In this document: one piece after another, positions 2,110-60,973 of the stretch
Layout of the letters: each line of letters opens with the position of its first letter
Numbering within the stretch: the first letter of the stretch is position 1
Program-made: the position numbers and the translations under genes
The notes under the pieces: generated by a model
What the model was told of the DNA's origin: nothing
Seen by the model: only the letters and a program-made list of their open reading frames with translations
Database searches by the model: none
Origin: Naegleria gruberi
Taxonomy: Eukaryota
Direction: 5' to 3' (one strand)
Length of the DNA stretch: 64,000 nt
Assembly: GCA_000004985.1 (NCBI GenBank)
Contig: GG738867.1

Positions 2110-5100
2110 ATGGCATCAAGTGATGTTCCAATTGAAAACAACCATATATCAACAACAACAACATGGGGAAGTGCTGCTACTAATACAATAACATCAACTC
2201 CAAGACTATTGCCGAAACCTCCAGTAACACCAAGAGGAAGTACAAAGGGAAGTTTGACACCATTAACAACGACAACAACAACCACCACTACTCCAAATAG
2301 TACTATTGCTAATGTTGTTAATGTAGGGAAACAACCTCCTCCAATTACAAATATTATTAGAAATCGAATAGAATTGGAGGAAAGAGAAAAGGAAAATCAA
2401 CAAAATATTCATTTATCATCACCGTTAACATCACCATCATCAATGCATAATAGTAATACTAATAGCTATTCGAATGAATATGAAAATTCCTCATACCTTT
2501 TCCAAGATGAAGTTGAAGAATATAAAACACCACCCAAACAATCGAGCACATCAACTCCCACAACAGAATCTTCATCTGCACTTCCTCCTCCTCCACCTTC
2601 TCTTCCATCATCAATGTCTAAATTGGCTTTAAAGAATGGAAAGATCAATAATAATTATCAGAAAGTAGTGACGACCACCATGATGAGTCCTCCACCTCCT
2701 CCACCAATAACAGTGGTGAGGAATGCACCTATTGCTACAATAGCTAGTACTGCATCACCAACAGTTTCGAATAGTAGTAATACTACACAACCAGAATCAC
2801 CTCGATTGGAAAGATACAAACCACTTCCTTCTGTTGCTAAATATAAGAGAGATTCAGTGGTAATTGCTAATTTGGCCAGTTTACCACCTCCTCAAATAAG
2901 TGATATGAAAGCATTCCTTGATATTTATGACAATAAGATACTAATTGTTGATTCGAGAGCATTTAGTGGCAGTAAAACTGTTAGTGAGCAATTAATATCA
3001 AGATTCACATTACGTACATTGACCATTGACAGCATTTTAGGAAGGGGCTGTTCGGGATGTGTCTATTTATGTAGTGAGAATGGAGAAAAGTTGGCTGTAA
3101 AGATTGTCACTCCAACTGCTACTTTTGCACCTAATGTAAAAGCAGAGTATGAACTAATGAGGTCATTGAATCATGATAGTATCATGAAAGTCCATGATTA
3201 TTTTGAAATGTTAACCTCACTTCAACCTGGATCTTTATTTACAATGAAATATTATGAAAATGGAGATTTGAGAAGATTAATTGAGGATTTTGAAAAGAAG
3301 GAAAAGAAAATCTCTATTCATGTATGTATTTTTTATAATTTTTAATGTAATGTGGATTTACCTTTGAATGAAAATTGAAACAAACAGTTGATTTATGATT
3401 TCATTTATCAAATGGCTAGCTCTTTAAATTTTATTCACACTCAAAAAATAATTCACCGAGATTTGGTATGTTTTAAAATTAATCAATTTCATAACCATTT
3501 CATCAATAGAAAGTAAGTTTCCTCTTTTGTTCCTCTTACTAAATTTGATTAATAGCCTGAAAATATTTTTATGGAAAAACAAACAGATCACACTTGTAAA
3601 ATAGTATTGGGAGATTTTGGATTGGCTAAAACTATACAACAATCACATGGACTCTATTCGATTGTTGGAACAATGAATTACCTTTCTCCTGAAATTGTAA
3701 ATAATTCTGAATACGGAGCAGAAACTGATATATGGAGTTTTGGTGTTGTCTGTTACGAGTTAATGACCTTAAAGAGTAAGCAAGTTGAAAGAGTGGTTAC
3801 ACTCCGCCAACAAGGAGCTCTCGTCAATGACATGCTCAACAGATATCCTCAAGAGGTTACCATGATCGAGTTGATTGTTCAAATGTTGAACAAGAATCCC
3901 TCTGATAGACCATCAGCGGATGAAATTCTCAAACAACCATGCATGAAACACTTTATTGAAATGAAGAAAGTGTGTGAACATATTGTACAGAAGCTTACTG
4001 AAAGTTTGGCTTATTTCCAGAAAAATTACGAGTTTGAAAAATGTGTACAGATCAAAGATCTTCTACAGAGTATTAGTCAACTGAGAGCAGAGTCCTGTGA
4101 TTCGAGTAGACTCAGGATATCACTCTTCAATGCATATACATTCTTGGAAGAAAAATTACCTGAAAATATTGACCTAAAACCAACTAAACCAAAGGTCAAT
4201 TTGGCTTCCTCTCCAGAAAAGCAAATAACTACCAAGAGAAGATCTAATACCAAAGCTGGTGTAACAAGTCCATCTAATCAAAATCCTCCATCATCCAATA
4301 CAACAATAACTACCACCACCAATAATCAACCTAACTTTAGAGTAACCATCTCAGGAGATGAGGAATTTTCACATCATTCTGAGGAATCTGAAAATTCCTC
4401 TGGTTCCACCGATAGTTCAACTGCTGTCAAGAAAAACTCCAATGCAAATAGTTTAGAGCTCGAAGATCCAAATATTATTAGAAAGAGGTCATCCTCTCGT
4501 AATACTATTATAAATCAAATCAAGGGATGGGTTGGTTATGGAACAGAAAAGGAGAAAAGCTTTAGACAAACTGTGGTAATTAAGCCACCAGATCCAAACA
4601 AGTTCCAACACAGCCATCACATTGGAGTGGACGATAGAAATAGAGTGAGTGGAAATTATCCAAAAGATTTTGATTCAGTCTTACAAGACATGCATATGGA
4701 ACCAGTAGAAAGCCCAATTGTTGAAACTCCCACTCCTGTCATTAAAGAAGGAGAAGAGGAAGAAGAAATTAAACCAAGACTACACAGAAGATCAACAAGT
4801 CTATTCGAAAAGCCATCCCTCAATCAATCTCTAGATGAGATTACAACAGTCGCGAGTCCAACCAAACAACGTAGCTCGACTGTGAAAAGTAGTAATAGCC
4901 CTGTACCACCAGTGGAGATTTTAAAAGATCCTCCAAACTCACCACCAAGTACAACAACTCCTTCGACACCCTCTAACTCTGAAATACTCAAAATTTCTCC
5001 ACGATTTGGAAAGGCTGGAAAGTTAGAAGTCAGTCCAACTCCATTCGAAATTACTGGTACTCCTGTAAAATCTCCAAACACACAAAATGGTGTGGAAATT

Positions 5101-5214
5101 CCAAGTATTGGAGGTGCATTCAAACTCATCTCTGACCGAAGACAACAAGATATCATTGAAAAGAATATTGAAGAAGCTTGTAGCTCACCAACAGTTTCAA
5201 GAAGACGAAGGTAA
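2110..5214 (+). CDS. Ser/Thr protein kinase, NEK-like catalytic domain, with long low-complexity N- and C-terminal extensions. Multi-exon model: 2110..3321, 3388..3465, candidate micro-exon 3510..3512, 3556..5214.
   Basis: Kinase motifs are present: GRGCSGCVY...LAVKIV (Gly-loop and VAIK), IIHRDL | K | PENIF, DFGLAK, GTMNYLSPE and DIWSFGVVCYEL. The catalytic domain is split across ORF-track pieces 1963..3345 and 3571..5214. Intron boundaries are GTATGT...CAG (3322..3387), GTATGT...ATAG (3466..3509) and GTAAGT...AATAG (3513..3555). Confidence 0.7.
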
Positions 5215-5321
5215 AATAATAAACTATGATGACTGTTTCCAATAATTGTTAAACAACAATCCAAGAAATTTCAATAATTAAGAAAGGTTTTATTAATTCT
5301 TACATTACTAAAATCCAAGTC

Positions 5322-6209
5322 TTAAATATCATCGTTAGAAATGAGATTCTCCTTATTATTGTCACTCATTATTTCATCGTCTGAATTTTGATCTACAGCA
5401 GCAAAATCCTCATCAGTTGCATACAGTATCTTTTGCATATCTCTCATAAAGGTGAGTTGTTCCTGTGAAGCAGATTGATTATCTTCAATGGCTTGTGTAT
5501 ATAATTCAATGTCTCTGAGTTTTTGGAAGTAAAAGTCTCTTTCTCTCTCTAGGTTTTCAATTCTTAGTTGCATCATTGATAAAGAGGATTTTGGAGGGGC
5601 TGCTATCTTCTTCTCTATTTGAGTTCTAGCTCCTCCCCTTGTTGTGTTTACATTTCTAACGTTATTCATCTTATTGGTTGATGTTGTACTATTTATAGAG
5701 GTATTAAGGTTGTTGGTTGGTTTTCTTTGTGATATTGATGATGATACAGAGAGTGTACTAGTATTTGTTTGTGATGATCCTGCAATGGTTGTTGTTGTTT
5801 TTGTTGTTTGTCTATATTCCTTGATGGCAGCCTTTCTTTTCGAAACGGCATCATATCCAGCGTCTGTGCCTTCATTCAATTTGTCGTCATAGAACTTTTT
5901 AAGCCACTGTAGAAATTCTAAATTATCTTGATATTTTCCTCTAATTAATTTGTTAACTTCTATCACCTTCGGAATGTTCAGCTTGGTGAATACACTCTGT
6001 AGAATTTTATAATTTTTAATATATTCATAATCAAACTTGGCTTCAAAGTTTACTTTGGACATTGGTACAACTCCCGGAAAGAGACTATCTACTATTTGGC
6101 AAGCACAAGCTCCTGTACATGTTTGTTCTATACGTTCATATCCAAAACCGAACGATTCATTGATCCACTGCAGTAACTCCTTTCTTCCCATATGATAAGC
6201 GTCGGTCAT
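5322..6209 (-). CDS. EB1: Microtubule plus-end binding protein, EB1/RP family (calponin-homology domain plus EB1 C-terminal coiled-coil/EBH domain).
   Basis: N-terminal MTDAYHMGRKELLQWINESF...CTGACACQIVDSLFPG is a calponin-homology domain. C-terminal LRIENLERERDFYFQKLRDIELYTQ is the EB1-like signature motif. Single uninterrupted ORF. Confidence 0.85.
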   Translation of the reverse strand: MTDAYHMGRKELLQWINESFGFGYERIEQTCTGACACQIVDSLFPGVVPMSKVNFEAKFDYEYIKNYKILQSVFTKLNIPKVIEVNKLIRGKYQDNLEFLQWLKKFYDDKLNEGTDAGYDAVSKRKAAIKEYRQTTKTTTTIAGSSQTNTSTLSVSSSISQRKPTNNLNTSINSTTSTNKMNNVRNVNTTRGGARTQIEKKIAAPPKSSLSMMQLRIENLERERDFYFQKLRDIELYTQAIEDNQSASQEQLTFMRDMQKILYATDEDFAAVDQNSDDEIMSDNNKENLISNDDI

Positions 6210-6615
6210 GTTGATTGGTAGTTATGATGATATTTTTTTTTTTGAAACTCTTCTTTTGCTAACTGTTCATTTTGGCGCGAAAAGAAGCCTCCCTGTAATT
6301 TCTTCATTCACTTTGTTTGAAAACAATACTAGATGATTATTCTGAAACAGTTTATTACTTATTAATATTTCTTTGTTATTATGAAAGGTCATCTTCTGTG
6401 TGAGAATTTTAAAATTAGAAATGAACGTTAGGAATAACAATTCACCTTATTGCATCTTTTAATTTTTAATTATTTTAAAAAAATTATCGTTAAGAAACGC
6501 CCTAGTGGTATTAAGCCGAGTCGACTTCACACTTTTGAAGACCGTTGTACATATATAATAGTAACATTAATCTAATACAACAATCATTGTATAATAATCT
6601 AGGTAATTAATCATC

Positions 6616-8457
6616 ATGTCTTCGATGCCTCCGTTCGTGAAACAAAATTCAACCTCAAGCGTTTCATCATCTTCAGCTCCTAAAGCCTCAAAGCCATCAT
6701 TTAGGGAAAGATATCAATTGGATTCACCTTCTTCATCCCCTAGGACACCAACAACAATTGGAGAAGATGGATTTAATTCTACTGTTTCTGTTGAAGAAAC
6801 AAGATCGCCTTCCAACATTGTTTCGGCGGTAACATCATCAAAGGCAAGAATTATGGCTTTGCAAGAGGTTTTGCTCTCAAGAAAAGAAAAGGATAGAAGT
6901 GAATCACCAGCTGGTGAACAAAGAAAAACTCCATTTTCTATGGATTTTGAGAATAGATCGTCACCAAGAGTCTCTCCAAGAAATGTCTTTGACAACACTA
7001 AGGAGACAACTCCTACTATTGCCGTAACTTCATCATCGAATGTATTTACAGTACAAGGAGGTGAAGAGGGGAATAAGGTGGAAGTAAGTCAAGATCCAGT
7101 GCAAGCACATTTGGACAGAATTATGAATAGAAGAAAGGAAAGAGTTGTGACACAACCTGAACCAACGCAACCAGTAATGGATACCCCAAAGAGAGAACAA
7201 GAAACAAATGACAAGTTACAAGCAATTTTCGAAAGAAGAAAGAATAGAGAAGATAAATTGGAACAAATATTAATTGGAGAAGATTCTAACTCATCAGAAG
7301 ATGCTTCATCTGCATCAGGAGACATTATGAATGAATTCTTGAAACGAAGTGTTGAGAATAGCAGAGAATCATCACCAGTTCCAACCTCAACTTCTGATCC
7401 ATCAAAGATATCAGATCCAAAAATTCCAATGTCTGAAGCTACTTACAATCAACCAGAACCTAGAGAAAATATTCAACCAAAAATTGTTGAACCACCAGCA
7501 AGAGCAGTGGAAGATAGAAGAGATCTCACACCAACATTGCATCTGGATCATTTGAAATCATCTCCAATGCGTGGATCCCCTAAGATGCTTAGATTCAAGG
7601 AAGAAGATGAAATTTCCAGGCCAATTGAAGCACTTCCACATAATGTATCATTGTGGAGAATAACTGGAGAAAGATGGAAACTCTACAATGTTTCTTCGTT
7701 CCTTTCCAAAGAGTCGATGGCAATATTGTCGAATAGAACAACAGAACAACCAAATAATTTCGATGCCTTCTTTAATGAGACAGACACTGACCAAGGTGAA
7801 AGCTATCCTCACTACCAAAAAGCTCTTCAAAATCCATATCCTTCTTATCCATACGATCCTAAACCTGTCAGCAATCCATTTTCTTCTGAATTGAATTCCC
7901 CACAACCAAGAATGTTCAAATTCAGAAATCTTGATGATTTATTCCAAGCATCTTTTGAAGTTCCAACAGAAAATGGCATTGGAAAGAGACAGGCATTTAG
8001 AGCTGATTTGAATGGTAACTTTTTGAGATGTCTCAAAACTAATCAAGTTTTCAATCAATTTTTATCTATCGAAGAAGAAATTCTGAATAGATTGATAACA
8101 GGAAAGGAAGTTCTTAAAAACACTCCAAAAGGAAAGGTACACAAGAGATACCTTTTTATTGATCCAAAGAATAAGGAATTGGTATGGAGCGAAAATGAAA
8201 AGAAAAAGACTGGACTTGCTCGTGCTTCAAGAAGAATCAAATTGGCCGATATCACCCAATTGAAAGCATTGGAAATGACAATGGATCAAGCAAGAGTTAT
8301 GAAGATTGCAGTTCCATACGATAAGAAGCCATTTGGTTTGGTTATTGTATCACGAACAAGAACTGCTGAATTTATTGCAACAGAGAAACCATCCGAATTC
8401 CTTGCTATAGTAGTTGCCATTGCTTTAGCAGCTCACAAATATGGAACAACAATTTAA
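6616..8457 (+). CDS. Hypothetical Ser/Pro-rich protein with a possible PH-like C-terminal domain.
   Basis: 613-aa uninterrupted ORF. N-terminal two-thirds is low complexity and S/T/P/E-rich. C-terminal about 130 aa (KVHKRYLFIDPKNKELVWSE...FGLVIVSRTRTAEFIA) resembles a PH/GRAM-like fold. No confident family assignment. Confidence 0.5.
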   Translation: MSSMPPFVKQNSTSSVSSSSAPKASKPSFRERYQLDSPSSSPRTPTTIGEDGFNSTVSVEETRSPSNIVSAVTSSKARIMALQEVLLSRKEKDRSESPAGEQRKTPFSMDFENRSSPRVSPRNVFDNTKETTPTIAVTSSSNVFTVQGGEEGNKVEVSQDPVQAHLDRIMNRRKERVVTQPEPTQPVMDTPKREQETNDKLQAIFERRKNREDKLEQILIGEDSNSSEDASSASGDIMNEFLKRSVENSRESSPVPTSTSDPSKISDPKIPMSEATYNQPEPRENIQPKIVEPPARAVEDRRDLTPTLHLDHLKSSPMRGSPKMLRFKEEDEISRPIEALPHNVSLWRITGERWKLYNVSSFLSKESMAILSNRTTEQPNNFDAFFNETDTDQGESYPHYQKALQNPYPSYPYDPKPVSNPFSSELNSPQPRMFKFRNLDDLFQASFEVPTENGIGKRQAFRADLNGNFLRCLKTNQVFNQFLSIEEEILNRLITGKEVLKNTPKGKVHKRYLFIDPKNKELVWSENEKKKTGLARASRRIKLADITQLKALEMTMDQARVMKIAVPYDKKPFGLVIVSRTRTAEFIATEKPSEFLAIVVAIALAAHKYGTTI

Positions 8458-30157: not shown

Positions 30158-31200
30158 ATGCAACAAGAACAGGAGGAGGGTGATACATGTTTCGAAAGCG
30201 AACATGAGTACATCACCACACAAGATGGCTACAAAGTGTCTGGTACCTTGTTCTTTCCCATTCAACGTCATCTTGTAATTGATGAACACATGAAGACAAC
30301 TGTCATTTTATTAAGTGGAGCTATGGGAGTTCCTTCTAAATTTTATAGAGAATTTGCTAGATTTCTATGTGGAAAAACAAAATGTGTGATATCTACAATC
30401 GATTATAGANNNNNNNNNNNNNNNNNNNNNNNNNNNNNNNNNNNNNNNNNNNNNNNNNNCCATTCCAGGACTTTATTTATATTGGACACTCAATTGGTGC
30501 TCAAATACTGGCCTATTTCCCACCAGAATACTTGAAAAAACTGAGAGGAACTCTCCTAGTAGCGACACAAAGTGGTGCCCTTAAACATTGGCCATTAATT
30601 CGTCAGAGGGCAGAGTTGTACTTTTATTGGTATGTTTTTCTGCCGAGCATGACCATGCTGTATCCAAGGGAGGTTCCATTATTTGGTGTGGATAATCGAA
30701 TAATTTCAGATTGGTATGGAGCTGGTCGATGCCACAACAAGTATTTATTCGAATATTTTAATATTGGAGATGCAAAGGTTAATTCGAAACATGTATCTTG
30801 GATTTTACAAGACAAACCAGTGGTTGTATATAATGTAGATAATGATAAGTTTGCACCATATGATGCAACCATGTGGCTGACCAGAACATTTACTGAACCA
30901 AGTTTTGTTTCTGATTTGAAAATGGAATATTTCAATGACAAGTCAAAAGCTCTGCAAATAATGGATTTGAAATTTGATGGAAATGATAGAAAATTGGGAA
31001 CATTTGGAGGAAAACAAAAGATATTTTACTGTATTCGTGGCCAAGTTGCTAAAAATATTGGACATTTTAACTTTTTTAGGGAAAAGGAGGGAAAGAATGA
31101 ATGTTGGCCTCACTTGCTATCCCATTGTTTAGATTTATTAAATAATTGTGAAAATGATGATACATTAAATCCACCAACCACAAGACATAGTAAACTTTGA
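30158..31200 (+). CDS. Alpha/beta-hydrolase fold serine hydrolase with C-terminal PTS1 (-SKL), interrupted by an assembly gap.
   Basis: GHSIG nucleophile elbow (YIGHSIGAQ). C-terminal ...TTRHSKL*. Paralogue of 45097..46455. The frame changes across the 50-N gap (ORF-track 30158..30535 and 30532..31200). Confidence 0.65.
30410..30459. other. Assembly gap (50 N).
   Basis: Run of exactly 50 N characters inside the hydrolase CDS. Confidence 1.
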
Positions 31201-36904: not shown

Positions 36905-39900
36905 ATGAATGTCTTCAATGCCATGTTCCAGACGAGAAAGGCTCCATCGTCGGCCACTGGAACCACTCAAGCCATGCATGTATTTTACATGTTGTCAATG
37001 GAAAAGATTTTGAAGAATTTAGTGAAGAAACAAACCGATTTGAAGAATGCTTGCCAAGAAGTTATGGGTATGTTTTGTTAGGGAGACTTTTTAGTTAATC
37101 AATAATCATTATTGTCATTAATTAAATTAACCTTCATTCACAAATAACAATGGAATAATATATAGATGTTATTAAAAAGTTGGAAAAGAACGAAGCCGAC
37201 GTTCTTAGGGATATTTCTGAAAATCCAAATAGATACTTTAAACCTTTGGAATTAGCTTGTGCAACCAAAAAACCAACAATAGTAGAACCGGCATTGGATT
37301 GTCTTCATAAATTGATGGCTTATGGATATATTGATAGTAAAATACCATATGAAGGGAAAACTGATCTTTTAATTGATGTTGTTGTTGCTACAATTTCTAA
37401 TTGTTTTGATCCAACACAAGACGACAATGTTCAATTACAGATCATCAAGGCCCTTCTTACAGCAGTTACATCATGTGATATCCATGGAAGGAGCTTGAGA
37501 TTAACCGTAAAGACTTGTTTCAATATTCATCTAGTTTCAAAGAATGAAATTAATAGAAAGACAGCACAAGCAACTCTCAACCAAATGTTGAATATTATTT
37601 TCCAAAGAATGGAATCAAAACCACCAAAAGCTAAACAACAAGAAGCTAATCAAGAAAATGTTCAAGATGAGAGTGCTCTTGCACAACTTCAGGAGGAAAA
37701 ACCAACAGAGGATTATATTAATGAATTTGTTGATGGAATAATAGATGACGTTGCCCAACAAATTTTGGAACAACAACAATATGATCTTGAGAATGAGGAG
37801 GATGACGAACCTATGGATGTTATTGAAAGTGAAAATAATGGAGAGTCATCGGATAAAACAAATACACGTAAGAGATCGGTTTCAGATGCTGATCACGAAC
37901 CAAACGCTCCAATTTTTGACAACCAATACCAAAAAGATGCTTTCTTTATATTTAGAGCATTATGTAGATTAGCCATGAAGCAACTCCCTAAGAAGTATGT
38001 TTTTGTTATTACAATTTATTAATTTAAATTAACAATTTAAAAACCTAGTCCAACCCCAGACTCCTTGGAACTTAAAAGTCGTTTACTTTCTCTTGAATTA
38101 ATTCACAACGTTTTGGAAAACAGTGGACCAGTGTTTAGAACATCTGAGACTTTCATTTCGGATATCAAGCAATTTTTGTGTTTATCACTTTTGAGAAATT
38201 GTACAAGTCCAGTTCCACCAATCTTTTCTCTTTCATTGTCCATTTTTAAATCCCTTGTTAAATATTTCAAAGTTAATCTGAAAGGAGAAATTCGTTTGTT
38301 CCTGACAAACTTTTTGCGTATCTTACACAGTGAAAATAGTACATATCACCACAAGATGTTGGTAATTCAGGTTTTGAGTTTTATTGCTCAAGATTCACAA
38401 ACATTATTGGATATTTTCGTTAACTATGATTGTGCTTTGGACTCTTTGAATATTTACGAACAAATTGCTAGTGAATTGTCAAACGTTGTACAAAACTTAC
38501 AAGCTGAAGGAGAATGGATGACACCTACACAAGAACTTAAATTAAAGACAGCATCTTTGAATGCTTTGGTGTCTGTTTTGGAATCACTTGTAAAGTGGAT
38601 GAATGAAAAGCAAGGTGAATCATCAGAGGAACTTAATAATCAATCCGAAGAAATGACTGAAGGTGAATACTTTGAAAAGCAAAGAAACATGAAGATTGGT
38701 CTGAAAGAAGGTATCAAACTTTTCAATAGAAACCCAAAGAAAGGTATCAAGTACCTTGTTGAAATTGGAAAACTTCCAGATCCTGAAAAAGTCGACAAGA
38801 CTGAATATGCTACCTCTGTTGCTAAGCTTTTATATAATACTGAAGATTTTTCAAAGAAGTTGATGGGTGAATTTATGGGTGAACAAGTTAATAGTGATAT
38901 TCTCCATGCCTTTACTGAATTACAATCATTTGCTGGTCTTCCATTCGATAAGGCATTCAGAAATTATTTGAATACATTCAGACTTCCAGGTGAAGGCCAA
39001 CAAATTGACAGAGTTGTCCAAAAGTTTGCTGAAAAGTACTTTAAGGATAACGGAAAGTCACATGTTTTTGCCAATGCTGATGCTTGTTACGTTTTTGCTT
39101 ACTCTGTAATTATGTTGAATACCGAATTGCACAACCCTGCTTTCAACTTCCGTGAAAGAATGTCTCTTGAAGCTTTCATTGCTAACAATAAGGGTATCAA
39201 TGATGGTGGTGATATTGACCACAAGTACCAAGAGTCTATCTATGGAAGTATTAAGAATAATGAAATTAAATTGAAGGGAGATGAAATGGAACAAATTGTG
39301 CAACAATCCCAAGATAAAACTCAACTTACAGCTCAACAAAATCCAAGAAAGAAGCGTATGTTGTTCACTTTGGAAAGCGAAAAGCTCGAAAAGGAAACAA
39401 GAAACTTGTTGAAATCAAGTCAATCACAGAGTGATTCTGATGATCAATTCTTCAGTGCTAATCACATTACTCACGTAAGAAGTATGATGGAAACAACCTG
39501 GGAATTTTTCAAGGAAGGTCTCAAGGCTACTTTGGAAAAGGACAAGTTTGCTGATACTAAGGTCCATGACAATTGTCTCAGAGGTTTGGAATATGCTATT
39601 CACATTACTAGCCGTTTTGATATGCCAACTGAAAGATTGGCTTTTGTTCAAACATTGTGTCACTTTACCAAATTGACCATTTCTGAAAAGGAATATGAAG
39701 CTCAAAATGATCCAAATCATATCCACCAAAATCCAGATACTCTCAAGAACAGATATATTATGCAAGATAGACACATCAAGGCTATCAAGATACTTCTCAA
39801 GATTGCCGAATTAGAAGGTAATTATCTTAAGGACAGTTGGGCCAATATTTTGGAATGTCTTTCTCAATTAGAAAGATTGCAATCTGATGTCCCACAAAAT

Positions 39901-43290: not shown

Positions 43291-44265
43291 ATGCAATTCT
43301 GGATTCAAGACACAAAGCCATCTTGGCTGCCAGAAGGTTTTCAAGTGGTAAGTTTCAAGTAGTCAACTGAAGTATGAAATCCTCTTTTTCACATAGCCAA
43401 ATGAAATGTTAAATAAAGTGCAAGAATTGACCAAGGAAGCAGAGAATGTATATTATCAAGTTGACACTGAACGTAATGGATTTTTGAGAAGAAAGGAATT
43501 CAAGAAGGCAATGAAGAAGTTGGGTATCAACAAGTATGAAGCAAAGTAAGTTGTCTTGTTACAATTGACTGATAAATTTGAAGACACATGTTAATATTTG
43601 TTGATCAAGAACGTCTCAAAGTGGTTAGCATTAAGAATTATGTCAACTCCTACTTGTTCATCCAAAGTGGTGGATTGAATCACATCAATACTGATTATCA
43701 AGGTCCAATCACATCTGTAGTTGACCAAAGAACTCACATGAACAATACTGAGCCAGAAAGAATACCATTCGACATGTCTCAACTCTCCAAACAGCTATCA
43801 AACATCTCATTCCTTACTCAAAATGTCTTCCAATCCATTCCACGTCCAAAAAACATTGTTGGCTACTATCAAACAATGCAAGCAGCCAATGGCATGTACT
43901 TGTGCTCTGAAAATGGAAGACTGATTGCCAATCGTCCAGTTATTGGACCGTGGGAGAAATTCTTCCTACATCACGATTCAAGTTGGGGAGTTGATGGCAG
44001 AGCACTCAAAACTGTTTGGAATAAGTATATATGCTGTGAAATTGATAATACAGCTGTGGATAATAGAACTGCAGTTGGTCCTTGGGAGATTTTCAAACAA
44101 AGTATTCCAGATGATGGTGGACAGAGTATGGAAAGGAATGTTTACAAGTCGTGGACTGGGCGGTATCTCACATCTGATACTACTGGAAATGTTTCATTTG
44201 GTGCAACTTCAATTGGAACAAATGAGATTTGGATATGTAAGGTTGTTAGTGCAGTGTATATTTAA
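43291..44265 (+). CDS. EF-hand plus beta-trefoil (fascin/ricin-B-like) protein. Three-exon model: 43291..43347, 43397..43545, 43584..44265.
   Basis: Exon 2 encodes an EF-hand loop, DTERNGFLRRKE. Exon 3 carries repeated GPWEKF / GPWEIF beta-trefoil-type motifs. Introns are GTAAGT..ATAG (49 nt) and GTAAGT..GAAG (38 nt). The second intron is very short, so the model is tentative. Confidence 0.45.
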
Positions 44266-53472: not shown

Positions 53473-53553
53473 CGCAGACTGCAGGATTCGAACCTACGAA
53501 GGTTTCCCCAACAGATTTCAAGTCTGTCGCCTTAACCACTCGGCCAAGAATGA
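53473..53553 (-). tRNA. tRNA-Ser (UGA)-like copy with a degenerate 5' acceptor strand. Probable tRNA pseudogene or duplication breakpoint.
   Basis: Positions 8-81 are identical to the Ser-UGA gene at 29945, including the 3' flank TCTGAAATTTT. The first 7 nt read TCATTCT rather than GCAGACT, so only 4 of 7 acceptor pairs can form. Confidence 0.5.
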
Positions 53554-54193: not shown

Positions 54194-54319
54194 TGATCTA
54201 TTATCTCAAAGCAAGATGATTATCTTCCATTGCTAAAATTTTGAACAACTTATCGAGATGTTGAATTTCATGGTTCATGTGTATTTACAACAAGATGAAA
54301 GGGTGACACGGATTTTTGA

Positions 54320-56833
54320 TTGTTTTATGGTGTTGGAAGAATTATCCAACAAGACAAAAAAATGGAACTTAAAGATGGTTACTTTCCTTCTTCCAATGGT
54401 TCCGATTTTACATCATTAGCAAAGTTGCAACGTTTTTCACCCATTTCTGTCTCATTCAATGTATTAATTTGCTTTGATTCAAAATATGAGACCGAAGTGA
54501 GTGTAAAGAAACATCAACTATCCGATGAAACAAATTTACTGGTAAGTATTAATCCACACCAAAATAATTTATTATTGATTGACTAATTTATTATTATATT
54601 ATTGAAAATAGGTAGAAACTCTTTCATCCAATCACCATTTAAAAAATTGTGAATATTTACTGCCAATCTATGAGTGCATTCCAGATGATGTTGATTCATA
54701 TTTTACTATTTCTCCCTATTGTAAAGAAGGTGATCTAGAAGAATGGATTCGTAGGAATGAATTTTCTCTGCAAAAACCCATTCCTCCCGAAACTATTCTT
54801 CTCATCCTCTATCAGGTTGGCATTGGTATTGATACGCTCCACCACTCAAATATTATTCACAGAGATTTGAAATTGAAAAACATTTTCGTTAGGGAGTATG
54901 ATCCAAACACAGGATATATCAAAATAATGATTGGAGACTTTGGTGATGCCAAACAAATGGAAAAGAGTTACTATGAATCGTCTGGTACCAAAACTTTTAA
55001 TGATTCACCTCCAGAAATAATAGACCAATGGAAGCAAAACAAGAAGGATGTTAAGTGGACAAAGAAAGCCGACTTATGGGGCATTGGTTGTGTGTTGTTT
55101 AGGTTATTGACATTTGATTTGGTATGTTGAGAATAGTTGTTTCATTAACACAGAAAAGACTTCTCCACTTCATGATATTATTTTCGATGATGCTAATGAC
55201 AATTGGATTGTAAATCTTTGTAACAGATTTGTATGTAGTTTTAATAATCAATTATTTCAAAATAATCATTGACAAGTAGCAACTCGATGACTTGTTTGTG
55301 AAATTACTATACTACACCTTACAACCAATCTACTCACAGAGAGGAGGATCTGCTAGTTTTTTGGAAAGGGTATTATTGGTTTTAACCCAAAAAGGTTGTC
55401 ATATACGTGATGAAAAAAGTGGGCTGATTAATGGTATTAGCAAAGCATTTAACGAAAATACAACTGAATTGATAAAGCAACAAACTCTCGATATTAGCAC
55501 TTTCATGGGAATGAGAGAGGACTATTTGAGAAAATTGGCAATATCAATCATAGACAATGATTTGGAAATATTAGAAGAAGTTCCTCATGCATTGGAAAAA
55601 GGAGATTCTTTTTACCAACAGAAACTAATTATTATGCTTACTACTAATGATTTGAAAGATGAGAAAGGGATGGAAGATATTTTTGAAAAATCAATTCAAT
55701 TATTTCCAAAATGTATTTATCTATCCAAATTATCATGTTCCCTTTTCTTCATGCTTGAAAAATATGAAAAATCATTATTATATATTGAGAAAGTAACATG
55801 TAATTCTGTTTTTAAACTAAATTATGAAGACTGGATTACCTGCTATGACATGAAATCAAATATTTATGCTATTCAGGAAAAATGGGATGAAGCATTATCG
55901 ATTGCAGAATTTATTCTTTTGGAATTGGCAGTTAGGAAAAGTAATTGTATTCCAAAGCACGTTATTGCTTTAAATAGAGCTGAATTGTATTTTAATAAGA
56001 AAGATTATGACCAATGTATTGAATCATGTACATTTGTAATTGACACATTTGAGAACCTTCATTCTGTAGAGGATGAGAAAAATGCCCACCTTGTAGCATA
56101 TACTTTGGCTGCTAAAGCATATGGAGAAAAAGGAGATCAGTATAATTGCTTTAGATTCATCCAGGTAGCTCATTCTACTAATGAAAGAGACTGCACAATT
56201 CTAATTATCAGAGCACAGTTATATATCAAGTTCAATCAGATTGAGTCTGCACTCGATAGTATTTTGAAAGCAATATCTATACAACCTCAAACAAGGGAAT
56301 ACTACGAGCTTGCTTTAACTGTGTTTAAAATGTGCAAAAATGTAAACATGACCACTTTATGTTCTGAACTGATTACCAAATTGGATAATAGAAAAGAGAT
56401 TACCAACTCAGACCTGAGTTTATTACTTAAATTAGAAACAAAATCTACTATTGAAACCATCAAACAAGATTCCTCTCATAATACTGTTTCACCTCTAAAT
56501 GCTATTGTAAAAACCAAAATCACTTTGAGCACTCTACGTGGAACCACTGTTAAGGTGGAATGCACTGACATTGAAGGTATCATCAAAGAATGCAGACATA
56601 AATTATTGAACGATAAGTTGGAAATAATTGTAAACATGAAAGAAAAGACTAGAATTGACTATATCGAAGATTTGGACCCCTCAATTAATTACACAATTTT
56701 AACAGTTGAAGAATTCAAGGATTTAGACGCGAAACAACCTCCTTCCAACACAAATTCAATCCTATTATCCTCCATGGCAGCTCTTTCTTTCCTTGCTGCC
56801 GCAACCTCCTATTTATTCATTGTAAGGAAATAA
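54320..56833 (+). CDS. Protein kinase domain fused to C-terminal TPR-like repeats (paralogue 1, Gly-loop degenerate). Three exons: 54320..54541, 54612..55121, 55280..56833.
   Basis: IIHRDLKLKNIF, IGDFGDAK, SGTKTFNDSPPE and DLWGIGCVLFRLL. Introns are GTAAGT..ATAG (70 nt) and GTATGT..GTAG (158 nt). In exon 1, SPISVSF replaces the GxGxxG loop. Confidence 0.55.
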
Positions 56834-56839
56834 AAAAAA

Positions 56840-59075
56840 ATGTCATTGCTCCTCTCGTCATATTCTCGCTTCCAAAATGTTGAGATGATTGGTGCTGGGT
56901 CTGGTGGGACTGTTTTCCGTGCTTTTGATCAAGAAATTGGAAAACAAGTGGCCATCAAAGTGACTAAAAGTATTCAAGAAATGAAAATTGTAAGTAAATT
57001 CTTGTTACATTGTAATCAATGGACAATAATTTAATATATTATATTAATAGTATAATTATATTAAAACAAACAATATTCAAAATAATTACCTGGTTGAAAT
57101 TTATGATCATTTACAGAGTGGTGACGATGACTCTATTATTGTGATGGAGTATTTTCGAGAGGGAAATTTAGAAAATTGGTTGAAACAAAGAAAGAAACCT
57201 CTCAGTTGGCTCTTAATTTATAGTATCCTATTGCAATTAACATTCGGAATACACTACTTGCATTCCAATAAGATTTTTCATAGAGATTTAAAGTTGAGTA
57301 ATATTTTGGTGGTGGAGGAGGTTTGTGAACACATGGTGAGAGTAAAGATTGCAGATTTGGGATTATCGAAAATAGTGGATCATGATACAATCAAGCACTC
57401 CAAGGTTGGAACTCACTATTATCTTCCACCAGAAGTCAGACAACAAACCACTGAAGAAATTATACCAGAGAAAATTGATATTTGGAGTTTTGGAATTCTG
57501 GTTTTCAGATTATTGTCCAGAGATTTTACGTATGATGTGGCCAGCAAGTTGGTCAATAGTAAGGAGAAGGATTTTTGTGAGGATGTACTGATGAAGATGA
57601 TTCAGAATAATGAAAATGTTGATTGTGGGGTTGTGACTAATTTTGTAACATTTCTCACACCAACACTCAAATTGAAACCAAGCGAAAGGTATAATTCACT
57701 GGATTTATTCGATTTATGTTTCAATATTCCAAATAATGAGTCGTATGTCGATCAAGATACTATTGACCTACTTGTTGATTGTAGAGTTGATCCTTTGATA
57801 ATTGGAATTTGTTACTTTTCTCTCAAACAGACAGAAAAATCAATTCACTATCTCGAAAAAGTATTAGAGAACAAAACAGAAAATAACAATAGTGCAGAGA
57901 AGGGCTTTGCATGTGCAATCATGGCCTTTATAACACTGTTCAATGGTAAAAACAGAACCATTGTTAATTCAGAGAAAGAATACAAAGTCAATCCTGACTT
58001 TTTGAGATATATTGAATATGTGGAGAAATATTCAATTACTTTCAAGCTGTATCATTTGTTAAAATCAAAGCAATATTTTATGAGCCAGCATTATGAAAAA
58101 TCTATAGAACATGCAGACCAATGTATAGAACATATTGGCTCTGCCTCTAGTTTGAAAGCTTGTTGCTTGCATGGTTTAGGTTATTATGATAAAGCACTTG
58201 AGGTTATGAAGAAAATCAACCCAAAAACTGAAATGGATTACAGAAACATGTCATATATTTATTTGGTTGAATATCAAAATTATGAGGAGGCTTTAAAGTG
58301 TGCAAATAGTGCACTAGAACTCAATCCAGGAGTTCCTGATTTTTATTTACTGAAAGTATGCTGCCTCGCAAGTGCTGCTCCAAGTGAGGCTCTTACTTGT
58401 TTGAAGAATGCTCGAAAATTAATTGGAAAAGTAGGTGTATATTACTATCACAAGGGGAGAATCTATTTGAATATGGGGAGATTGGAAATGGCTCTTTCTA
58501 AATTAAATAAGGCCCAAGAATTAGGTGAGGAGAGTATGAATTTGATTGCAGTTTTGGAAATGGCATTGGGTAGATTACCTGAAGCTCTTATTTCAATCAA
58601 TAGATATTTAGAAAAGTATCCAAATAATATTACAGCCCATAACAACAAGTTCAAGATATTAATCATGCAAAATTTGACAGAGGAGGCGAAAATTGAGCTA
58701 GAATTAATTGAACATCTCAAACGTCTCAACATCAAAACTGAAAAAACCATCAAACAACAATTGTATTTTGAAAATGACAAACCTCCCATCTCAAACATCT
58801 CAAACACGAATATTAAGGAGTGTTATTTTGTTTCCAAAAACCATACCTTCAAAAGAAAGATTAAATTTAACTCTGTGGAAGATCTTTTGAAGCAATGCAG
58901 AAAAGAATTTCAAGACGAAACAATCACCACTTTTATTGACGAAAATTCACAAGTATGTGATTTAAAATTTGGAACTTTTATACATGGAAAAACCTATACT
59001 GTTACTGGTGATTTGTATATGGAACAAACTTCATATATGAGCTCGCTAATGAATTATCTTTTCCAAAAACGGTAA
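56840..59075 (+). CDS. Protein kinase plus TPR-like repeat protein (paralogue 2, catalytic motifs intact). Two exons: 56840..56989, 57051..59075.
   Basis: IGAGSGGTVFRAF, VAIKV, LVEIYDH...IIVMEY, IFHRDLKLSNIL, IADLGLSK, THYYLPPE and DIWSFGILVFRLL. Intron GTAAGT..AATAG is 61 nt. The C-terminal about 450 aa are helical TPR-like repeats. Confidence 0.7.
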
Positions 59076-60973
59076 ACAACAAAGGCCAAAATTGAAATAG
59101 TGCCTACTATTACATATGGGCTTATTGAACTCGATTCAGCTACTACACTGTATGTTTCATCTTCAATAATTTCATCAAATGCTTGGCATTTGGTTGCTCC
59201 TAAATGAATGGAAATAATTTTACGTTTGAATAACTTGCTGGCTTTCTCCATTAAATTTTCCATAGAATCTGAACGAATACAATGAATATAAGGGTGTCCC
59301 TCTAATCTCAGCTTTACATCCTTTTCAATAAACTTTCCTACAACGGTTTCTCTGTTGGCATTCTTATCCATTTGTTGAATATTATTGGAAGCCTCCACTA
59401 TATTACCCATTTCAAGTAGAATATTACTTCTTATTTCATTACTAAATTTGCAAGTGGGAATTTTCTGAAGATGATTATTGATTGATGAAAGAGCTTGGTC
59501 ATATCTTTTCAATTTTTGATAACATTGAGCTAGTAGTAAATCAATTTTGTTTTGAGGTATCTTAACCATCAAGAATTCCTCCAAAGCTTGCTCATAACTA
59601 CCAATAGCTCTATAAGTTTTTCCTTTCAAATAGTGGCATCTTGATTTGTCAAATTCTCTTTCAGATTCCTTCAGTACAGTATCGTAAATATCCAAAGCTT
59701 CTCCAAATCTTTTCAAGTGAGCGAGTGTCTTCCCCTTCCCCAATAAAATATTAAAATAATTTTTGTGAATTCTTAAATTGTAATTATCCAATGCAAAATT
59801 AAAATCTTCAAGTGCATTTGCAAATTCTCGAGTCTTATACCTACACTGTCCTCTATTGATATATACAGTATCTTCATCCAATCCATCACGAATAATAGAA
59901 TTGATATCTAATATTGCTTCAGAATATTGCTTACTCATTGCCTTGTAGGAACTCAATAGTATTCTTGGTCTCCTTTCACAAGGCTTTAATTGTGTAACTC
60001 TCTTGAGATATGCTAATACCTTTGCTGTGAATCCAGAATTGACAACTTGAATTTGACCACTAAGGAAATATACCAAATACCCTCCATTTTTCAAGTGTAT
60101 GTCTATTAATCGAATAATATCAGGTTCAAAACTTGATGCCAATTGTTCTGCGTCTATTTCTGGATTTTCAGCTGCATTGAAAACTTTGAAAAGCATTGAA
60201 TATAAAATCATTAAATCAAATATATCACCCTCTCCCAAAAACATTCTCAATTCTCTATTATTGATTACATTGTAAAATATCAAATCTTCTCTACCAACAG
60301 GAATTGAAACGTTCTCTCCACTCTCTGGGTGCAAGAATGCAATAACATTTAATTGTCTACAAATATCCTCAAAAAGTATAGAACTATTCACTCTCAAAGA
60401 TGGTTCAGGTTGAAGAGTTCCTTGTAAAATAATAATGAAAAAATTATCTTGTAGAGGTGTCAGCTTTTCTCTAATGATTTTCAACCATAATCTTTCATCC
60501 TCATCAATAGGAATAAAATTGGTTGACTGTATAATGAAAAGGTTATACACAAATTGATCCAACTATTGAAAACCTACCAATTTCAATAATTTCATGAGTA
60601 TTAAACCGACACACCACACGTCAACCTTCATCAATTGCATCTCTCTAGTCTCCTCATCATTCGTCATATGTAAGAGACCCTCCACTTCCTTTGGCTTGAT
60701 TTGTGAAAATTCTTCAATGGCCAACAAATGACTTTTAATATTTTCTCTCTCGTCCAAAGTGTCAAATTCTAACGAATCAATCAAAGGAATTCCTTCCTCC
60801 TTTTTAATAATTAATTTTAACAAATTCAAGTGTGCCTTTCCAACATTATGATGGTATTTATGTAAAAATAGAATTAATTTATAAATTAAATGGATGATGG
60901 TGATAGGATCATGATTGTTCTCTTTGGCAGTGTTGATAAATTCCTCCAATGTAAATCTTTTCATTTTTTTCAA
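59054..60973 (-). pseudogene. Truncated and degenerate member of the same kinase-TPR family (pseudokinase or pseudogene).
   Basis: Only C-lobe-like sequence is present (HHNVGKAHLNL in place of HRDLKxxN; VDVWCVGLILMKLL). The N-lobe is absent. An in-frame TAG (...KLVGFQ*LDQFVYN...) separates ORF-track pieces 60563..60973 and 59054..60562. The TPR-like tail is conserved with paralogue 2. Confidence 0.5.

Follow-up and report, generated by a model that had tools for sequence, protein, structure and literature searches.

Proposed exon-intron anatomy of the kinase gene

The 64,000-nucleotide (nt) stretch of nuclear DNA from Naegleria gruberi contig GG738867.1 (assembly GCA_000004985.1) analysed here, referred to below as the window, carries close to its start a plus-strand gene, NAEGRDRAFT_58002, whose predicted product is a Ser/Thr protein kinase. 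In the genomic DNA the catalytic loop of this kinase is interrupted on both sides of a single codon, the AAA at 3510-3512, and the observations assembled below make it very probable that this codon, which would specify the catalytic-loop lysine, is a lone exon of three bases lying between introns of 44 and 43 nt. The gene is, with comparably high confidence, predicted to consist of four coding exons (2110-3321, 3388-3465, 3510-3512 and 3556-5214) and not of two.

Exon 1 (2110-3321), as delimited by the open reading frame (ORF) map and its translation, extends from the ATG at 2110 to ...KKISIH and encodes an N-terminal low-complexity region followed by the kinase N-lobe with the motifs GRGCSGCV and AVKIV. 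By exact look-up its residues are identical to the start of the deposited protein EFC44592.1. Intron 1 (3322-3387), a phase-0 intron of 66 nt with the ends GTATGT...AACAG, joins KISIH to LIYDF, the predicted junction between exons 1 and 2 being AAAATCTCTATTCATTTGATTTATGATTTCATT; exon 1 is represented at the annotated 234-nt junction by ...ATCTCTATTCAT. Exon 2 (3388-3465) is a 78-nt open frame, of which ATTCATTTGATTTATGATTTC is a sample, and encodes LIYDFIYQMASSLNFIHTQKIIHRDL; it closes at 3465 with ATT CAC CGA GAT TTG (IIHRDL), represented in spliced junctions by ...CACCGAGATTTG, and a translation continued past 3466 meets a TAA at 3514-3516. Intron 2 (3466-3509) measures 44 nt, is in phase 0, starts GTATGT and reads GTATGTTTT...CATAAC...CAATAG. 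It is directly followed by the putative micro-exon AAA (3510-3512), which corresponds to Lys431 of the resulting 983-residue model, the catalytic-loop lysine of HRDLKPEN, and this in turn abuts intron 3 (3513-3555), a phase-0 intron of 43 nt reading GTAAGT...TTACTAAA...TTAATAG. The run CAATAG/AAA/GTAAGT spans 3504-3518. Exon 4 (3556-5214, with the stop codon at 5212-5214) starts with CCT GAA AAT ATT TTT (PENIF; opening residues PENIFMEKQTDHTCKIVLGDFGLAK, and CCTGAAAATATT... at its 5' end in spliced junctions) and encodes the kinase C-lobe, with DFG, SPE, DIWSFG and DRPS, together with a long C-terminal tail ending in SPTVSRRRR. All of these features lie on the plus strand. An initial annotation, made by a model from the letters of the sequence, had placed the end of IIHRDL at 3465, the AAA triplet at 3510-3512 and the start of PENIF at 3556, and had described the same flanks and the same 44- and 43-nt GT..AG introns; all of this is borne out to the base.

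The 983-residue model matches Pfam Pkinase at residues 306-560 (E 3.5e-53), and its translation contains the motifs GRGCSGCV, AVKIV, AEYELM, HRD, DFG, SPE and DIWSFG. The public gene model departs from it in the region of the catalytic loop. Joining KISIH directly to PENIF across a 234-nt intron (3322-3555) yields a protein that is identical, by exact look-up, to EFC44592.1 / XP_002677336.1 / UniProt D2VEZ5, the 956-residue product deposited for NAEGRDRAFT_58002, which has neither exon 2 nor the AAA codon and so is devoid of HRDLK. The corrected protein regains 27 residues, among them the aspartate of HRD and the lysine of the loop. Judged from the sequence of the locus and its relatives, the public model is wrong at the catalytic loop. 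A reference protein annotated as a protein kinase (D2VEZ5 / XP_002677336.1) is in this way without a catalytic loop as deposited, and is corrected here; this suggests that similar errors in other conserved motifs may lie hidden in Naegleria gene models for which no micro-exon-aware method was used.

The lysine codon in orthologues and in alternative splice models

A full HMMER scan of representative proteins with exon 4 alone as the query recovered matches (P0123, P0124 and P0126; E values from 1e-137 to 1e-57) that lead to three full-length orthologues: one in N. lovaniensis (KAG2393152.1; P0124), one in Willaertia magna (KAL9643260/1; P0271/P0126), and a 750-residue ORF on an ENA metagenome contig, L003 (P0123). 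Their alignment with the four-exon model starts in the kinase domain and extends to ...SPTVSRR(R/K) at the C-terminus, the N. gruberi gene being collinear with them over approximately 700 residues and up to the last residues. The 26 residues of exon 2 align one-to-one with WIYDFILQMADCLSFMHKRKIIHRDL and its equivalents in all three orthologues, and in the alignment of N. gruberi with its orthologues (A2) K431 occupies an invariant column. At the level of genomic DNA, the loop is uninterrupted in each relative: N. lovaniensis reads ATT CAC AGA GAT TTG AAA CCT GAA AAT, the ENA contig ...GAT TTG AAG CCT GAG AAT, and W. magna ...GAT ATA AAA CCC GAA AAT. The N. gruberi DNA, ...CGA GAT TTG [44 nt] AAA [43 nt] CCT GAA AAT, is the orthologous sequence with 44 nt before and 43 nt after the lysine codon. 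Given the uninterrupted loop of the orthologues, the AAA would be the orthologous lysine codon, set apart by two insertions in N. gruberi or by two losses in the others. Short of RNA, this comparison is the strongest support for the predicted micro-exon.

The lysine is constant among retrieved homologues as well. All 13 of them have it directly after HRD[LIV] or HKDL; 12 of the 13 display an HRD[LIV]K[PS]xN loop, a solved CDPK has HKDLKPEN, and one of them also has HRDIKPDN. The best database relatives are about 33-35% identical, and the best non-orthologous matches span 30-39% and are mostly nameless, those with names comprising NIMA-related kinases (P0020, P0026 and P0101), a Nek2-like kinase (P0071) and entries labelled only as Ser/Thr kinase. 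The top solved structures (CDPK, PLK2, NEK1, PLK4, NEK7 and Aurora A) score within 12 bits of each other. The initial annotation had termed the kinase NEK-like. Some of the matches agree with this and others point to different Ser/Thr kinases, and on sequence similarity the label appears only loosely supported. Other searches added little: a scan of JGI metagenomes with a profile of the four orthologous sequences added no orthologous locus to those above, its only matches being two remote kinases with 34-37% identity; a search with a profile built from the C-terminal tails recovered P0123 only, an absence that is uninformative since low-complexity words probably filled the candidates; and a word-indexed protein search with the kinase region returned matches of at most 39% identity, with neither the N. 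gruberi model nor the orthologues among them.

The splice models that could bridge the loop were enumerated by brute force, taking all GT/GC..AG combinations within 3440-3605. Fifteen of them are free of stops, three with a single intron and 12 with two. Of the single-intron models, one gives HRDL-PEN and the other two lose the catalytic Asn; none of the three carries the lysine, as had been anticipated for the single-intron case in the initial annotation. That annotation had also conceded that its proposal would fail if another acceptor could restore HRDLKPEN without the micro-exon; no such acceptor or donor emerged from the enumeration, in which only the micro-exon model restores the motif and only that model reproduces the uninterrupted sequence of the three orthologues. 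The spliced sequence that it predicts is ...CACCGAGATTTGAAACCTGAAAAT..., and the junction sequences expected with the AAA included are AATAATTCACCGAGATTTGAAACCTGAAAATATTTTTATGG and TTGAAACCT; the corresponding junctions are AATAATTCACCGAGATTTGCCTGAAAATATTTTTATGG for a 90-nt intron without the lysine and AAAATCTCTATTCATCCTGAAAATATTTTTATGG for the annotated 234-nt intron. With the lysine the Pfam Pkinase score is 185.7 bits as against 173.4 bits without it, a gain of 12.3 bits (cut-off 31.7). The HRDxKxxN loop with D-x4-N spacing is obtained only with the micro-exon, the 90-nt model yielding D-x3-N. In the genomic DNA the AAA has the hallmarks of a spliceosomal coding micro-exon, being a short internal exon with AG upstream and GT downstream between phase-0 GT..AG introns; its inclusion is needed to reproduce the conserved protein sequence, and the model containing it carries the catalytic motif of PF00069.

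The arrangement of the splice signals around this codon is far beyond chance. The pattern AG-AAR-GTA[AT]GT occurs once, at 3508, on the two strands of the window (128 kb), and, when the interior of the 90-nt interval was shuffled 200,000 times, it never appeared with both halves at least 30 nt long; the looser AG-AAR-GT appeared in 118 of these 200,000 shuffles.

Introns 2 and 3 also resemble other introns of the window. The 5' end of intron 2, GTATGTTTT, opens the introns at 37068 and 37995 as well, and its 3' end, AATAG, is common to several others; its branch-like ATAAC places the A 15 nt from the 3' end. Intron 3 has the consensus GTAAGT at its 5' end, a branch-like CTAAA/TACTAA with the branch A 13 nt from the 3' end, and a 3' end, ATTAATAG, that matches the intron at 56990-57050. 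On the whole, introns joining ORFs in the window start with GTATGTTTT, GTAAGT or GTAGGT and often end in (T)TAATAG, ATATAG or ACAG. The candidates measure 38-70 nt. Three of them occupy 43348-43396 (49 nt), 60527-60577 (51 nt) and 37995-38048 (54 nt), and a longer intron of 98 nt lies at 37068-37165. By length, branch motif and ends, introns 2 and 3 each appear spliceable on their own against this small reference set. For the W. magna orthologue the depositors' model places a 51-nt exon between two introns of 46 nt; the lengths in W. magna and in the window together suggest that 43-44 nt is ordinary for the clade. The literature searched, which did not include the genome paper, yielded no intron-length statistics for N. 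gruberi.

The W. magna pair lies at 3847-3989 of L004 (JBEGDK010000154.1), the 51-nt exon encoding (E)IANHQEYGSETDIWSLG, and is absent from N. gruberi, N. lovaniensis and the ENA contig. That W. magna has a pair of its own suggests that intron positions in this kinase gene turn over fast among close relatives. Closely spaced short introns may also occur elsewhere in the window. A second kinase gene (54300-56833, plus strand), with an uninterrupted HRDLKLKN at about 54861-54884, contains an apparent 70-nt intron at 54542-54611, and its frame breaks at 55121 (...LTFDL/GTATGT); the segment 55122-55279 may hold introns of about 37 nt (55122-55158) and 49 nt (55231-55279) around a putative 72-nt exon encoding TSPLHDIIFDDANDNWIVNLCNRF. 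An EF-hand-like gene (43292-44265, plus strand) contains the 49-nt intron at 43348-43396 mentioned above (GTAAGT...CACATAG) and a candidate 38-nt intron at 43546-43583 (GTAAGTTG...TTTGAAG), which, if real, would be the shortest in the window. Several GTAGGTTC matches in the splice-donor scan are T-arms of tRNAs. Five tRNA genes, three for Ser and one each for Asn and Gly, are identified in the window by ARAGORN, which reports none at 53473-53553 (minus strand), a tRNA-like segment with a Ser(UGA)-type anticodon loop that scores 44.4 bits against Rfam RF00005 and whose acceptor-stem halves are seemingly not complementary.

Splicing of the putative micro-exon, rival readings and origin of its introns

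The AAA would be equivalent to Lys168 of PKA, a residue that contacts the gamma-phosphate of ATP and sets the invariant D-x4-N spacing of the loop, and its inclusion would restore both this geometry and the contact. Introns of about 40-70 nt are expected to be recognized by intron definition. Each of the two short introns may be recognized in this manner as a unit across the intron, through its own 5' splice site, branch-like motif and AG. The AG of intron 2 and the GT of intron 3 are only 3 nt apart, and the pairing of U1 at a 5' splice site reaches the last three bases of the exon. Given this spacing and pairing, both sites could not plausibly be engaged together, and the two introns would be removed sequentially, in either order. 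The first removal would join the AAA to an exon of normal size and leave an ordinary intron for a second round, so that we infer a mature mRNA containing the AAA and encoding a 983-residue kinase with all its catalytic motifs intact. If confirmed by RNA, this would imply that the spliceosome of a deeply branching protist with short introns handles an exon of one codon, and the locus would offer a clean natural test case for the gain or loss of two adjacent introns and for the order of their removal under intron definition.

Several observations weigh against this reconstruction. An exon of 3 nt is too short for spliceosomal components to assemble on both of its sides simultaneously, and some skipping that yields a product without the lysine is possible on that account. 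The initial annotation had suggested that orthologues might share the three-piece structure, and here the outcome is negative, as introns 2 and 3 are both missing from all three relatives; the identification of the lysine codon is unaffected by this. The reference introns number about ten and were delimited by joining ORFs in the window, not verified by RNA, which makes the comparisons with them qualitative. Finally, neither the 983-residue product nor the 982-residue one has an exact match in a collection of 15 billion proteins. Exact look-ups of alternative TTG-start versions, of the exon-1 ORF and of the N. gruberi genomic record for the neighbouring gene likewise returned nothing, so that these look-ups yielded neither a transcript contig nor a second-strain copy of the micro-exon region.

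Among the alternatives, the most probable, though still unlikely, is that both isoforms are made, the AAA being alternatively included or skipped to give an active kinase alongside an in-frame form that lacks the lysine and is catalytically dead. Skipping of the AAA is mechanistically possible, would preserve the frame and would yield a catalytically crippled protein; the sites involved are good, and the 3-nt spacing makes competition between them plausible. Against this stands the usual rarity of exon skipping in intron-defined genes with short introns. The transcriptome record speaks on both sides, since exon skipping has been reported at low frequency in N. gruberi (PMC6142364; RNA-seq dataset PRJEB23822), while intron retention exceeded skipping in all but one species of the same study (PMC6142364).

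The possibility that 3466-3555 is one 90-nt intron, with the AAA unused and the product a pseudokinase or that of a degenerating gene with a lysine-less HRDL-PEN and D-x3-N spacing, is improbable. This model is in frame, being among the only three stop-free single-intron models, has a good 5' site (GTATGT), a branch motif (TACTAA) and an AG, and its length falls within the range of the window, given the intron of 98 nt at 37068-37165. It nevertheless requires AG/AAA/GTAAGT to have arisen by chance exactly where the orthologues have their lysine codon, an arrangement unique in the window and unmatched among the shuffles, and it forfeits 12 bits against Pfam Pkinase; decay of the gene is further disfavoured by the intactness of all the other catalytic motifs and by the collinearity over approximately 700 residues. 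That the deposited annotation is correct, with 3388-3465 and the AAA both intronic, is highly improbable: its 234-nt intron is in frame and has the ends GTATGT...AATAG, but the 78 nt that it omits are an open frame matching all three orthologues residue by residue, which is unexpected for an intron, its removal eliminates the catalytic aspartate of HRD, and the orthologous intron after KISIH is just 56-69 nt long and followed directly by WIYDF/WIYCF. Least credible of all is that the assembly or the sequencing is at fault, or that the gene is a dead duplicate, the interruptions being no part of a functional gene. The difference in synteny from the orthologues would allow the N. gruberi gene to be a relocated copy, yet there is no gap or run of N near the locus, the interruptions flank the codon precisely and with complete splice signals, unlike random insertions, and the proposed splicing leaves an intact frame of 983 codons that is conserved to its last residues. 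The four-exon gene with a lysine micro-exon is the reading that we prefer, and it is the one adopted below.

With regard to the history of the gene, the position of intron 1, after KISIH and before WIY, is shared by an intron of 69 nt in N. lovaniensis and one of 56 nt in W. magna, the following exon in the orthologues starting WIYDF/WIYCF; the intron is missing from the ENA contig. The absence of introns 2 and 3 from the three relatives suggests that the three-piece structure is lineage-specific. Identities over a conserved stretch of 279 residues place W. magna outside a group of N. gruberi with N. lovaniensis and the ENA contig, the last two being closest. On this topology introns 2 and 3 may have arisen on the branch leading to N. 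gruberi or have been lost on two occasions, and as either course takes two events, parsimony does not decide the polarity. A mutual duplication was considered and rejected, the global alignment score of the two introns being 8.5 against a shuffle mean of 8.3 ± 2.5, as was a repeated "introner" family, no copy longer than 13 nt being present elsewhere in the window; on these counts neither tandem duplication nor a repeated element is indicated. The introns are also not common to the paralogous kinases of the window, its two other kinase genes reading HRDLKLKN and HRDLKLSN without interruption. It is conceivable, though quite doubtful, that the pair was acquired recently, at neighbouring phase-0 sites and solely in the lineage of N. 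gruberi, through a local hot spot of intron gain or one compound insertion event of a kind as yet undescribed in Heterolobosea, and/or that conditional skipping serves as a splice-level on/off switch of the catalytic lysine.

A Ras/Roc-type GTPase gene lies upstream of the kinase in N. lovaniensis, W. magna and the ENA contig L003, and a different ORF (358-1470) occupies that position in N. gruberi. With neighbours that differ, the N. gruberi copy could be a relocated one or a paralogue, which touches the question of gain or loss and not the identification of the lysine. The region was compared over 1-1470 of the window, 938-2181 of L002, 246-929 of L003 and 1334-2680 of L004. Downstream, on the minus strand, is a gene of the EB1 family (5322-6209) with CH and EB1 domains; its 295-residue single-ORF product is on record only through an ENA metagenome contig, without an N. 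gruberi accession, and the public N. gruberi EB1 model may also depart from the simple ORF. That contig region is represented by L001 (ENA ERZ929261, contig k127_54350), which aligns to about 4872-6452, is near-identical to N. gruberi, and covers the 3' end of the kinase gene together with the EB1-like gene, with a few single-nucleotide polymorphisms and several indels upstream of EB1; it diverges sharply near 4872, which could reflect a rearranged different strain or a chimeric contig end. The next neighbouring ORF (6616-8454) is identical to EFC44593.1 / XP_002677337.1 by exact look-up. A run of N marking an assembly gap occurs at about 30409-30460, within overlapping plus-strand ORFs.

Comparison with known ultra-short exons

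The AAA exon is unannotated until now, and tiny exons as such are already known; no report of a Naegleria micro-exon was found in the literature searched. The closest counterparts in size are the 3-nt micro-exon micro-Ex8 of Drosophila homothorax (PMC7392893) and a 3-base exon in the human MAP4K5 kinase locus (PMC8632122). Like the AAA, the animal versions comprise one in-frame codon with canonical AG/GT flanks and are hard for aligners and annotators to place. They differ in residing between long introns in exon-definition genomes, where they are typically alternative or regulated, whereas the AAA lies between near-minimal introns in a unicellular heterolobosean and, as it would encode an essential catalytic residue, is expected to be constitutive. 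Moreover, the human MAP4K5 codon (residue 569) falls outside the catalytic loop, unlike the AAA.

Exons of a single nucleotide have been described in Arabidopsis (PMC4674806) and in Fusarium CYP621A (PMC12940212). These resemble the AAA in being ultra-short and in rebuilding a strictly conserved motif, and the Fusarium exon, again like the AAA, was revealed by comparison with an intronless orthologue and had escaped annotation pipelines. The single-nucleotide exons, however, restore the reading frame and are confirmed by transcripts, whereas for the 3-nt AAA, predicted from genomic comparison, the frame is kept either way and the motif alone is at stake. Plant micro-exons of up to 15 nt are pervasively mis-annotated (PMC8831610; MEPDB, PMC12409088), and the loss of small conserved-domain exons from their gene models parallels the omission of the 78-nt and 3-nt exons from EFC44592.1. 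The plant versions have been detected at scale by RNA-seq and are described as evolutionarily conserved, in contrast to the AAA exon, which occurs in none of the three nearest available relatives.

Recursive splice sites (AG/GTAAGT) and the stwintrons of fungi share with the AAA site the near-abutting 3' and 5' splice sites and the implied stepwise removal. In recursive splicing nothing is retained, the exon being of zero length, and in a stwintron the donor, acceptor or branch element of an outer intron is split by an inner one, so that the outer intron takes shape only once the inner one is gone. Neither description fits the present case. A recursive site is ruled out by the 3 nt between the AG and the GT, which the orthologues require in the product, and a stwintron by the fact that each of the two introns has a complete GT, branch-like motif and AG, such that removal of either would leave the other unchanged.

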